DNA from: Suttonella indologenes
GTDB lineage: Bacteria > Pseudomonadota > Gammaproteobacteria > Cardiobacteriales > Cardiobacteriaceae
DNA length: 32,000 nt
Direction: 5' to 3'
Assembly: GCF_900460215.1 (NCBI RefSeq)
Contig: NZ_UHIA01000003.1
Location: 494,760 to 526,759, forward strand
Positions 1 through 26,548 of the stretch are shown one piece after another. The notes under the pieces are model-generated. The model worked only from the letters and a program-made list of their open reading frames with translations, was not told the DNA's origin and did not search any database. The position numbers were made by a program, and so were the translations under genes. How positions within the stretch are numbered: position 1 is the stretch's first letter; each line of letters starts with the position of its first letter.

Positions 1-1
1 C

Positions 2-3000
2 AGCACACAAGGCAGCCTGAAAAATTTACACACCTTACAAGCTGGCAAACGCATTCAGATTCAAGCAAATAACCTTGATAATACAGCGCAAAGCAGCATC
101 CAATCAGGCGGTACAACAGACATCGCCGCGCAGCACAATTTAACCAACCGCGGCTTGATTGACGGACAACAAACCAAAATCCAAACTGGACAAGTACATA
201 ATCTCGGCACAGGTCGGATTTATGGCGACAATATTGCCATTACTGCCACGCGTTTAGACAATCAAGATGAAAACGGCACAGGTGCCACCATTGCTGCACG
301 AGAAAACCTGAATTTAGGCATCCGTCAATTAAATAACCGTGAAAACAGCCTGATTTACAGCGGTAATGACATGGCAATTGGCGGTGCATTGGATGCTCAA
401 GGTCAAGCCACAGGGAAAGCCCAAAGCATACACAATGCCAGCGCAACCATTGAATCAGCAGGCAAAATGCGATTAGGCGTAGCAACACTGCGCAATACCA
501 ATGAACACTTGCAAACGCAATTGGTAGAAACAGGGCGTGAGCATATTGTGGATTACGAAGCATTTGGACGACACGAATTATTGCGCGAAGGCACGCAACA
601 TGAATTAGGCTGGTTTGTTTATAACGATGAATCAGACCACTTGCGCACCCCCGATGGGGCAACACATGAAAATTGGCACAAATACGATTATGAAAAAGTA
701 ACCCAAGAAACCCAAGTTACCCAAACTGCACCTGCCAAAATCATTTCAGGCAGCGACTTAACCATTGACAGTAAAGAAGTCTTCAATACCGACAGCCAAA
801 TCATTTCAGGCGGCAATCTGCTGGTACAAACAGATAAAGACGGTTTGCACAATGAGCAAACTTTTGGCGAAAAGAAAGTCTTCAGTGAAAACGGCAAATT
901 GCACAACTACTGGCGTGCGCGTCGTAAAGGACGGGATAGAACAGGCCATAGCGTACAAAATTACACTTTACCAGAAGAAATCACCCGCAACATTTCACTG
1001 GGTTCGTTTGCCTATGAATCGCACAGCAAAGCATTAAGCCATCATGCGCCCAGCCAAGGTACAGCTCTGCCGAAAAGCAACTGGAATAATATCCGTACCG
1101 CACAAAACAACGGTATTTCGCTACCTCATTCGCCCAATCCTTTTACCCAATTGCCCAGCAGCAGTCTGTACATCATTAACCCAGCCAATAAAGGTTACCT
1201 TGTTGAAACCGACCCACGCTTTGCCAACTACCGTCAATGGTTAGGGAGCGACTACATGTTGGGTAGTCTTAAACTGGACCCCAACAACCTGCATAAACGT
1301 TTGGGTGATGGTTATTACGAGCAACGCTTAATCAATGAACAAATCACAGAGCTAACAGGACATCGTCGTTTAGATGGTTATCAAAACGACGAAGAACAAT
1401 TCAAAGCCTTAATGGATAAGGGCTTAAGCGCTGCACGTTCCATGAATCTCACGGTTGGCATTGCACTAAGTGCCGAGCAAGTCGCACAGCTAACCAGCGA
1501 CATCGTTTGGTTGGTACACAAAGAAGTTAAGCTCCCTGATGGCAGTACGCAAACCGTATTGGTGCCACAGGTTTATGTGCGTGTGAAAAATGGCGACATA
1601 GACGGTAAAGGTGCATTGCTCTCGGGCAACAATGCACAAATAGACGTTGCAGGCAACCTGAAAAACTCAGGCACGATTGCAGGGCGCAATGCGCTTATCA
1701 TCAACACCGATACACTGGACAATATCGCTGGGCATGTTCATGCACAAAAAGCAGCCATTTCTGCCACACAAGACATCAACAATATTGGCGGTAACCTTTC
1801 TGCTGAACAGGCATTATGGTTAAAAGCAGGCAACAACATCAACAGCCAAAGCACCACCGCCGGCAGTCAAAATACACAAGGCAGCAGCACCCACCTAGAC
1901 CGAATAGCAGGTATTTACATCACAGGCACAGAAAAAGGTGTTTTAGCAGCACAAGCTGGTAAGGACATCAACATCATTGCCAGTCAAATCAGCAATCAAT
2001 CAGAGCAAGGACAAACCCAGCTGCAAGCAGGGCGCAACATCAATCTGGATACCGTACAAACCGGCAAACATCAAGAAACCCATTTTGATGCTGATAACCA
2101 TGTTATTCGCGGTTCAACTAACGAAATTGGTAGCAATATTCAAACGCAAGGTGATGTTACCCTGTTAGCAGGCAACAACCTCAATGCCAAAGCTGCCCAA
2201 GTCAGCAGCGCAAACGGTACACTCGCTGTGTCTGCCAAAAATGACATCAACATCAGCGCAGGCATCAATACGACCCATGTTGATGATGCGTCCAAACACA
2301 AAGGCAGAAGTGGCGGTGGCAATAAATTGGTTATTACCGACAAAGCCCAGAGCCACAACGAAACCGCTCAAAGCAGCACTTTTGACGGCAAACAAGTTGT
2401 ATTGCAGGCAGGAAACGACGCCAACATAAAGGGCAGCAATGTCATTTCTGACAGTGGCACCCATATCCAAGCAGGCAATCATGTTCACATTGGCACAACC
2501 CTAACCCATAATCAAAGCGAAACCTATCATCAAACCAAAAAATCAGGATTGATGAGTGCAGGTATCGGCTTCACGATTGGCAGCAAGACAAACACACAAG
2601 AAAACCAATCCCAAAGCACCGAACATACAGGTAGTACCGTAGGCAGCATCAAAGGCGATACCGCCATTGTTGCAGGCAAACAATTCACCCAAATCGGCAG
2701 TACCGTTTCCAGCCCGGAAGGCAACAACACCATCCATGCCCAAAGCATAGACATTCAAGCAGCACACAACCAATTAAACAGCAATACCACCCAGACCTAT
2801 GAACAAAAAGGCTTAACGGTGGCATTCAGTTCGCCCGTTACCGATTTGGCACAACAAGCTATTGCCGTCGCACAAAGCAGCAAACAAGTCGGACAAAGCA
2901 AAAATGGTCGTGTCAATGCCATGGCAGCTGCCAATGCAGGTTGGCAAGCCTATCAAACAGGTAAGAGTGCACAAAACTTAGCCAACGAGACAACCAATGC

Positions 3001-26483: not shown

Positions 26484-26501
26484 TGAGTGTGCATTAAAGA
26501 T

Positions 26502-26548
26502 AAACCAAAGCTACTGGTTTTGTGCCAGTAGCTTTGGTTTTGATGTTT
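26502..26548 (+). terminator. strong rho-independent terminator after cdiB
   Basis: 16-bp stem aaaccaaagctactgg / ccagtagctttggttt with a 7-nt loop and a T-rich tail. Confidence 0.75.

Follow-up and report, generated by a model that had tools for sequence, protein, structure and literature searches.

A contact-dependent inhibition island of the Neisseria TPS system 2 type, with a long array of orphan cdiA pieces, in the gammaproteobacterium Suttonella indologenes

The 32,000-nt stretch of Suttonella indologenes analysed here (assembly GCF_900460215.1, contig NZ_UHIA01000003.1, positions 494,760 to 526,759; henceforth the window) carries a contact-dependent growth inhibition (CDI) locus in which the toxin gene cdiA is followed by a long array of cdiA pieces, and only then by cdiC and the transporter gene cdiB. 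Which transporter serves such a cdiA, to which known system does the locus belong, and what is the array for? Our answer, to which we give a probability of roughly 0.85, is that the locus is a CDI island of the Neisseria two-partner secretion (TPS) system 2 type, acquired by S. indologenes horizontally from Neisseriaceae. A full-length CdiA, with ESPR and TPS domains, filamentous repeats and a variable toxin end, would be exported by the CdiB encoded ~19 kb downstream; CdiC would probably lipidate CdiA, and the adjacent small gene would protect the producer. Between cdiI and cdiC, cdiA copies that lack their 5' parts would be kept in store together with toxin ends and immunity genes.

From left to right the window holds cdiA, which runs off the left edge, the array (5876-22779, 16.9 kb) of 5'-truncated cdiA pieces, toxin ends and small immunity-like open reading frames (ORFs), an insertion sequence (IS) of the IS110 family, cdiC and cdiB. 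An earlier reading of the letters (the sequence-only reading) had described a CDI/two-partner secretion locus with a long orphan array, in which one cdiA is followed by ~16.5 kb of cdiA pieces and then by cdiC-cdiB in the same orientation. Domain matches and repeats agree with this description, the array being slightly longer when measured. Six proteins encoded in the window are exact matches of S. indologenes records (SUO92467-SUO92479). The genes of the system proper are:

2..5875, + strand: main cdiA (tpsA2-type), the 3' 1957 codons; frame 2 is open from base 2
5886..6233, + strand: cdiI-1, candidate immunity gene for the toxin end of the main cdiA, 115 aa, directly 3' of cdiA
24183..24641, + strand: cdiC, predicted HlyC-family lysine acyltransferase, 152 aa in its meningococcal counterpart (Pfam HlyC, 8.3e-47)
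24696..26483, + strand: cdiB, tpsB2-type Omp85 transporter, 595 aa (POTRA_2, POTRA_3 and ShlB, 3.6e-108)

The features of CDI and two-partner secretion (type Vb) are present, namely an Omp85-family TpsB with POTRA domains and, in CdiA, haemagglutinin repeats (Pfam Fil_haemagg_2, 1.5e-45) followed by a variable toxin end. The variable C-terminal region of the main cdiA starts after the SGSLKNNFDKDKVQSE motif, at ~4087-4140, and four cdiA copies part ways after a common SGSLKNxFDK motif. For the cdiA 5' end and the region upstream of it we relied on conspecific assemblies (97.5-99% identical), alignment to which places the start ~2.45 kb left of base 1. Over the shared part, the main cdiA is 97.5-97.8% identical in nucleotides to the full-length genes, with ESPR and TPS domains, of two of these assemblies (L037 and L038; L-numbers denote the loci compared), the one in L038 encoding 2743 aa (ESPR 1.5e-15, TPS 5.2e-58); three conspecific assemblies from a scan of metagenome contigs are 98-99% identical over the first 405 codons. 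cdiI-1 and the same toxin end are found together as an orphan pair in strain L021.

The position of the transporter gene behind everything else had been taken for a Burkholderia-type order not usual in Neisseria, and this view has to be given up. N. meningitidis 8013 has its genes in the order cdiA, immunity gene, orphans, cdiC, cdiB. So do nine further meningococcal assemblies, N. elongata, two N. weixii loci and five contigs from metagenomes; in a sixth such contig, L046, only cdiA, cdiC and cdiB are seen, in that order. In the meningococcal loci the tpsA2-type gene has ESPR and TPS domains and is followed by an immunity gene, by orphans (641 and ~1204 aa) with small genes, by a 152-aa HlyC-type gene and by a 595-aa TpsB; N. 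elongata has cdiA (2687 aa), two small ORFs, cdiC and cdiB. Since the same order recurs across the Neisseria loci, it is not a Burkholderia peculiarity and, judged by these comparisons, is native to the meningococcal TPS system 2 family. For strain MC58 we assume the strand and order of the system 2 genes, the order itself having been tested here on 8013 and the others. TpsA2 (NMB1768) and TpsB2 (NMB1762) lie in the horizontally acquired island IHT-C (PMC3082526).

A tpsB immediately upstream of cdiA was what the sequence-only reading had named as able to overturn its assignment of cdiC-cdiB. In conspecific strains the 7.5 kb upstream of the full-length cdiA contain a heme-uptake operon, a WYL gene and a toxin remnant, and no tpsB. 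Likewise, nothing transporter-like lies in the 7.5 kb upstream of the N. elongata cdiA, and in L007, L030, L033, L037 and L038 the search upstream of cdiA turned up no cdiB homologue. The comparisons thus support cdiC-cdiB as the cognate transporter module of cdiA.

Several lines of evidence bear on where the island came from. All close relatives are from Neisseriaceae. Compared with N. elongata, CdiA is 86%, CdiC 95% and CdiB 93% identical in amino acids, and both cdiB and the cdiC-cdiB region as a whole are 94% identical in nucleotides, the homology to Neisseria islands stopping at ~26563, 80 bp past cdiB. The cdiC product shares a 90% cluster with proteins of N. meningitidis (including 8013), N. 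elongata, N. cinerea, N. lactamica and Wielerella. The island core has a GC content of 46-47% vs 41% in the flanking housekeeping genes. Positions 14646-17463 (2.8 kb) are 98.9% identical in nucleotides to N. meningitidis 8013, and the immunity protein encoded at 16508-16939 has a 100% identical counterpart in a meningococcal protein that occurs on 493 contigs. This near-identical block and this identical protein point to a recent inter-class transfer.

The island is also marked by a 12-mer, AGGCAGCCTGAA, with 13 copies (0.01 expected; positions 10, 4090, 4507, 7445, 7747, 10776, 12561, 13016, 15113, 17290, 17455, 19801 and 25598) and none in ~17.6 kb of housekeeping DNA from S. indologenes. 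The majority of the copies are dyads, TTCAGGCAGCCTGAA. The islands of N. meningitidis, N. elongata and N. weixii bear the same 12-mer; these species have a different uptake sequence of their own, and their island flanks carry GCCGTCTGAA-type sequences. In coding parts it reads as SGSLK, including the SGSLKNxFDK that precedes the variable region of four cdiA copies, and it occurs once in cdiB. We take AGGCAGCCTGAA to be kingDUS, the DNA uptake sequence (DUS) of Kingella oralis. Simonsiella muelleri is described as having overlapping kingDUS/simDUS dyads, and transformation of N. meningitidis by kingDUS is very poor (PMC3630211). The pattern suggests a kingDUS/simDUS lineage as the one in which the island evolved before it spread; alternatively, AGGCAGCCTGAA may have been kept for coding reasons alone.

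The array itself consists of the following pieces, numbered where they are orphan cassettes discussed below:

6310..7345, + strand: orphan 1, a cdiA homology arm (= 5189-5517), a barnase-like RNase end (ORF 6321-7040) and a Barstar gene (7031-7345), from Pfam and self-BLAST
7361..7701, + strand: cdiA fragment of 341 bp (= 4423-4763, 99.4%) without toxin end, ending exactly at a palindromic element
7700..7892: that element, a 193-bp doublet of inverted 42-bp palindrome-containing repeats with a DUS dyad inside (core GTGGGCAAC-NN-GTTGCCCAC)
7889..12063, + strand: orphan 3, a 4.2-kb 5'-truncated cdiA body (ORF 7927-12063, 1378 aa; 96.7% to cdiA 1218-3708) with PT-VENN and its own toxin end
12053..12412, + strand: candidate immunity gene for orphan 3 (by position), 119 aa
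12964..13311, + strand: single palindrome, DUS dyad, ribosome-binding region and ESPR stub (ORF 13057-13311; Pfam ESPR 5.1e-10)
13408..14482, + strand: small lipoprotein-like ORFs at 13408-13788, 13782-14108 and, truncated, 14210-14482 (from paralogue comparison)
14586..17232, + strand: orphan 5 (ORF 14586, 640 aa), putative lipoprotein immunity gene 16508-16939 and an 83-aa toxin-tail remnant, 16981-17232
17239..17372, + strand: second 5' relic, with single palindrome, DUS dyad and 14-codon ESPR stub (ATG at 17331); 97% to 12965-13099
17531..21173, + strand: orphan 8, a 3.2-kb 5'-truncated cdiA body (to 20725; 97.6% to cdiA 1895-3805) with its own toxin end and a putative lipoprotein immunity gene, 20736-21173
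22192..22762, + strand: last cassette, a toxin-tail remnant (22192-22470) and a lipoprotein-like putative immunity gene (22439-22762)

As in tpsC-type arrays, 5'-truncated copies share a homology arm with the main cdiA and each is then followed by a small ORF. Self-BLAST bore out the earlier observation of three copies with near-identity on the kb scale, pairing 1218-3708 with 7889-10379 (96.7%), 1895-3805 with 17531-19441 (97.6%) and 8566-10379 with 17531-19344 (98.3%); smaller repeats pair 4423-4763 with 7361-7701 (99.4%) and 5189-5517 with 6310-6637 (93%). Three orphan ORFs, of 1378, 640 and 1094 aa (1.9-4.1 kb), are without interruption. The pieces range in size from the 14-codon ESPR stub (17331-17372) to the 4.2-kb body (7889-12063); the sequence-only reading had given 20-codon scars to 4.2-kb gene bodies.

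One toxin/immunity pair is recognised by family match, the barnase-like end and Barstar of orphan 1 (6321-7345; Pfam Ribonuclease 6.9e-07, Barstar 5e-14); the other pairs are proposed from position and co-transfer. PT-VENN in orphan 3 scored 7.6e-10 in Pfam, and a family search with the product of its candidate immunity gene (12053-12412) gave no match. The immunity protein of orphan 8 falls into a cluster, at >=90% identity, with lipoproteins of N. meningitidis and N. lactamica, and 22233-22778 is 76% identical in nucleotides to the 3' end of the full-length tpsA2 and its immunity gene in N. meningitidis 8013. The three ORFs of 13408-14482 form, with 21230-21634 and 21645-22031, a five-member family of lipoprotein-like paralogues (27-69% pairwise identity); no toxin stands next to them, N. 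lactamica and N. bergeri have cluster relatives, and we regard all five as candidates for orphan immunity genes. With six candidates directly 3' of toxin ends (one of them Barstar), these five and three dubious ORFs, there are 11 good candidates; the figure of up to 14 in the sequence-only reading holds as an upper limit.

All-against-all comparison separated five mutually unrelated complete toxin ends, those of the main gene, of the barnase-like ORF at 6321 and of the ORFs at 7927, 14586 and 17441. Two toxin remnants, at 16981 and 22192, are related to the tail of the 14586-type end, so that the former count of at least six types was slightly generous. The 14586-type end (15297-16505) is a member of an uncharacterised family that terminates haemagglutinin-repeat proteins in Haemophilus, Snodgrassella, Actinobacillus, Bisgaardia and Neisseria. 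An HSRGG motif (H-S-R-G-G) as well as Asp and His residues are invariant in this family. Its AlphaFold model (pLDDT 79.6) gave weak PDB matches, all of them alpha/beta hydrolases (best E 4e-3, TM <=0.46). Mainly from the invariant motif and these weak fold matches, we tentatively regard it as an alpha/beta-hydrolase toxin. A lipase- or esterase-type CDI toxin that is active outside the cytoplasm is one possibility, and a partner that is a predicted lipoprotein (16508-16939) would fit with a site of action there.

How the array is used can be read to some extent from other strains. Three S. indologenes strains have arrays of ~2.2, 16.9 and 18.5 kb, and in the meningococcal loci sampled here ~5-10 kb lie between tpsA2 and cdiC. 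The array had been called unusually deep; it is about twice the size of the sampled meningococcal ones, and the term is relative, given the 18.5 kb of one conspecific strain and the mere 2.2 kb of another. The other-strain assemblies share 22785-32000 at ~99% (IS110, cdiC, cdiB, an IS256 remnant and housekeeping genes) and differ in their arrays. A check of related strains for the cassette at the 3' end of the main gene, which had been proposed with the sequence-only reading, showed that the segment 3639-7891 (main toxin end, immunity gene and next cassette) is, at 99.1% identity, a 731-aa orphan in mid-array in L021. In L020/L038 the full cdiA ends instead in a barnase-type toxin followed by two Barstar genes, and window positions 11670-20284 are shared at 98-99.8%. 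The 14586-type end, an orphan here and in some meningococci, closes the full tpsA2 at its 3' end in the meningococcal loci L030 and L033. The strain comparison shows that blocks move between the 3' end of the full-length gene and the store, and that whole blocks are exchanged with Neisseria. Such exchange would proceed by homologous recombination via the common cdiA body and the conserved SGSLKNxFDK region. Because they are without the ESPR and TPS parts, the orphan pieces would not be secretable alone; the store would serve mainly as an immunity-gene collection and secondarily as a source of alternative toxin ends. For meningococcal tpsC cassettes, exchange has been found to be real but rare, with the immunity collection as possibly the main benefit (PMC3848433; PMC5472700).

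How the large orphans came about is suggested by the ESPR stubs and the palindromes. The stubs had been seen as remnants of complete cdiA genes. They are indeed there, the one at 17331 being supported by the 97% identity of its flank to 12965-13099, and the idea of gene remnants is upheld; they are, however, only 50-59% identical to the ESPR of TPS2-type cdiA genes and by this measure are relics of the 5' end of a tpsA from another lineage. The 14-codon stub is in the same place in N. meningitidis and so came in already truncated within the transferred block. The palindrome core (GTGGGCAAC-NN-GTTGCCCAC) has 8 copies in the window (0 expected) and, in the DNA compared, was found only within islands of this type. 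Besides the 193-bp doublet, its copies are:

17372-17532: 161-bp doublet
12964-13005 and 17239-17279: single copies
22196-22237: collapsed copy
24057-24076: degenerate native copy

Native copies lie ~110-130 bp 5' of cdiC and of the main cdiA, and the 193-bp doublet of L038 (7245-7437) lies 113 bp 5' of the start of the full cdiA. The right end of the doublet, always ...CCCTACGCTTGC, borders, in different places and strains, on cdiA at -114, 1218, 1351 and 1895 and on the interior of a toxin end; two of these junctions show microhomology of 8-9 nt. On its left, the doublet adjoins a cdiA fragment broken off at 4763 and an ESPR broken off at codon 14. Most simply, these junctions can be read to mean that the large orphans derive from complete incoming cdiA copies with an upstream doublet, once present here, and that deletions anchored at the hairpin-forming repeat took their 5' parts from the palindrome edge. 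The palindrome might act as a deletion hot spot, a recombination site, an operator or a terminator.

Towards the right lie two mobile elements that the sequence-only reading does not mention:

22824..24055, - strand: IS110-family element (transposase 22862-23860; Pfam), between the array and cdiC
26621..27577, + strand: IS256/Mutator-family transposase remnant (Pfam Transposase_mut 1.5e-71, partial profile coverage), outside the system

By comparison with the uninterrupted N. elongata sequence, IS110 sits in the left arm of the palindrome, ~130 bp 5' of cdiC, and does so in all five S. indologenes assemblies that cover the position. A non-coding leader of ~190 nt precedes the transposase gene, and a promoter scan 5' of cdiC gave one weak match (9 of 12 consensus positions) abutting the start codon; the element may affect cdiC-cdiB transcription. 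The IS256 remnant varies by strain, which marks the right edge of the island as a rearrangement hot spot; in L014 (12226-15903) extra sulfatase and THR4_C-domain genes stand between it and the methyltransferase gene. An Rfam scan of the window gave no match.

On the left, the region 5' of the L038 cdiA holds a TonB-dependent receptor and a heme-type ABC operon, an opposite-strand WYL gene, an 83-aa EndoU remnant, a 94-aa ORF and the 193-bp element. The last three form a module (6697-7437; also in L036) that recurs at L038 18512-18989 and L020 7776-8303, that is, inside the array, so that cassette material also stands in front of the full-length cdiA. The WYL-domain gene (L038 6094-6693, - strand, 199 aa, ~850 bp 5' of cdiA) holds a kingDUS copy and is present in three S. 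indologenes strains; we considered it as a conserved island regulator binding the palindromes and rejected this, the gene being absent beside cdiA in the Neisseria loci. In two contigs from another organism (82-88% nucleotide identity; L034 1704-3855 and L035 88-2239), a 116-aa internal tpsB fragment, which may be a relic of tandem islands, lies directly 5' of a related, pseudogenised cdiA, next to an IS1595 transposase. Protein searches for full-length CdiA gave only proteins of less than ~710 aa, the best N-terminal hit being P0212 from these two loci of the other organism. A record titled Neisseria gonorrhoeae DSM 9188 (L008) has a cdiA 85% identical with frame breaks and a cdiB (75%) downstream, and gave no cdiC match; gonococci are reviewed as lacking a functional TPS system, and the record is either a decayed island or mislabelled.

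A Neisseriaceae-derived TPS system 2 island has to be weighed against other explanations. One is that two unrelated loci adjoin here, cdiA being served by another transporter and cdiC-cdiB heading a second locus the cdiA of which was destroyed by IS256. The IS elements on both sides of cdiC-cdiB would suit such a history, as would the cdiB-cdiC-cdiA-cdiI order of E. coli class IV loci (PMC8510554) and the tpsB fragment directly 5' of a related cdiA in L034, an unrelated metagenome contig. But N. elongata, N. meningitidis, N. weixii and six metagenome contigs also have cdiA followed by cdiC-cdiB, here with short spacers and without an IS, the homology of the N. elongata island ends 80 bp past cdiB, and the upstream DNA of conspecific strains is, as said, free of tpsB; by these comparisons we hold the idea very improbable and already largely refuted. 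Least credible of all is that assembly expansion made the repeated gene bodies, a worry also raised in the sequence-only reading and one that may draw on the breaking of short-read assemblies at repeats here (many contigs are of 1-12 kb). The copies differ at 1.7-3.3% of positions and run into different toxin ends, an 18.5-kb array with copies of these kinds is covered whole by a 212-kb contig from another strain, and complete meningococcal genomes carry homologous orphans of 641 and 1204 aa. With independent assemblies of other strains having the same architecture, an assembly artefact is excluded for the orphan bodies.

Other proposals concern how the array grew and what it does. Site-specific capture and truncation at the palindromes, possibly by an IS110-family recombinase and giving integron-like growth, might explain why the element ends base-precisely at five different junctions, why IS110 lies inside a palindrome arm and why the palindromes are island-specific and far above chance. 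Yet the microhomology at two junctions is what hairpin-stimulated illegitimate recombination would leave, the meningococcal and N. elongata islands have palindromes without this IS110, and a native copy ahead of cdiC and ahead of tpsA start codons would be just as much in keeping with an operator or a terminator; we regard site-specific capture as unlikely. Hardly better are the odds that the island is a transformation-borne, self-contained toxin module of mucosal Neisseriaceae and Cardiobacteriaceae, with its own uptake dyads in the style of Kingella oralis/Simonsiella, coded as SGSLK right ahead of the variable toxin region, and with palindrome doublets as capture and trimming junctions for incoming cdiA; if it were so, Suttonella would share a toxin/immunity network with the meningococci. 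Nearly an even chance is left for the array being an immunity-gene stockpile in which the toxin pieces are decaying by-products, a proposal that would refine the Neisseria-type island rather than replace it. No toxin partner accompanies five of the lipoprotein-like immunity-type genes, only tails are left of two toxin ends while the small genes downstream are intact, and Arenas et al. measured very low exchange rates and proposed the same for tpsC cassettes (PMC3848433); on the other side, three orphan ORFs of 1.9-4.1 kb are uninterrupted, and identical toxin ends stand at the full-length gene in one strain and at an orphan site in another. Four points weigh against the island as we read it. 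Pfam, NCBIfam and PDB sequence searches of the toxin ends found nothing beyond barnase and VENN, four of the five ends being without a recognisable family. The direction of transfer is deduced from composition, uptake sequences and distribution. Expression of cdiC-cdiB is not assured, because IS110 lies ~130 bp upstream with only the weak promoter-like site in between. Finally, the cdiA 5' end and its upstream region are outside the window and were deduced from the conspecific assemblies.

Among known systems the nearest is the N. meningitidis TPS system 2 island, which has the same order and content (tpsA2-type cdiA, immunity gene, truncated orphans, 152-aa HlyC-type protein, 595-aa TpsB), the same palindromes and the same 14-codon ESPR stub. 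It differs in that the S. indologenes host belongs to another class (Gammaproteobacteria, Cardiobacteriales), that the array is about twice as long (16.9 vs ~5-10 kb), and that IS110 lies 5' of cdiC and the IS256 remnant 3' of cdiB. Burkholderia bcpAIOB loci likewise have the transporter gene 3' of the toxin and immunity genes, a likeness in order only: there bcpO precedes the transporter gene, where S. indologenes has an HlyC-family gene, and the Burkholderia pre-toxin motif is NxxLYN, whereas one S. indologenes orphan has VENN. Enterobacteria such as E. coli EC869 reportedly carry tandem orphan cdiA-CT/cdiI pairs 3' of a full cdiA, sharing a homology arm; these are said to be mostly short and VENN-bounded, whereas two S. 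indologenes orphans keep 2-2.5 kb of body and show 5' deletions from a palindromic repeat. Meningococcal system 1 (tpsC cassettes, IORFs) likewise has truncated tpsA copies and alternative toxin ends, each followed by an immunity gene, with recombination at short identities and uptake of outside DNA, and has been read as an immunity collection (PMC3848433); its order, however, is tpsB-tpsA-cassettes without an acyltransferase gene, whereas in S. indologenes transporter and acyltransferase genes come after the array. In E. coli class IV CDI (cdiBCAI), the lysine acyltransferase CdiC lipidates CdiA and promotes target-cell recognition (Allen et al. 2021, PMC8510554); an HlyC-family acyltransferase gene is thus common to both loci, in the order B-C-A-I there and A-I-array-C-B here. 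The locus belongs to a known system, and what is new is the gammaproteobacterial host and a depth about twice that of the sampled meningococcal loci.

The transporter-last order is therefore no sign of a Burkholderia-like system, a likely misreading that is corrected here. Because their arrays measure 2, 17 and 18 kb and their main genes have different toxin ends, the three S. indologenes strains offer a compact natural series in which archive growth and toxin-end swapping could be studied. The comparisons made here place the meningococcal system 2 toxin island outside Neisseriaceae as well, with near-identical cassettes in a gammaproteobacterium of the same mucosal habitat.

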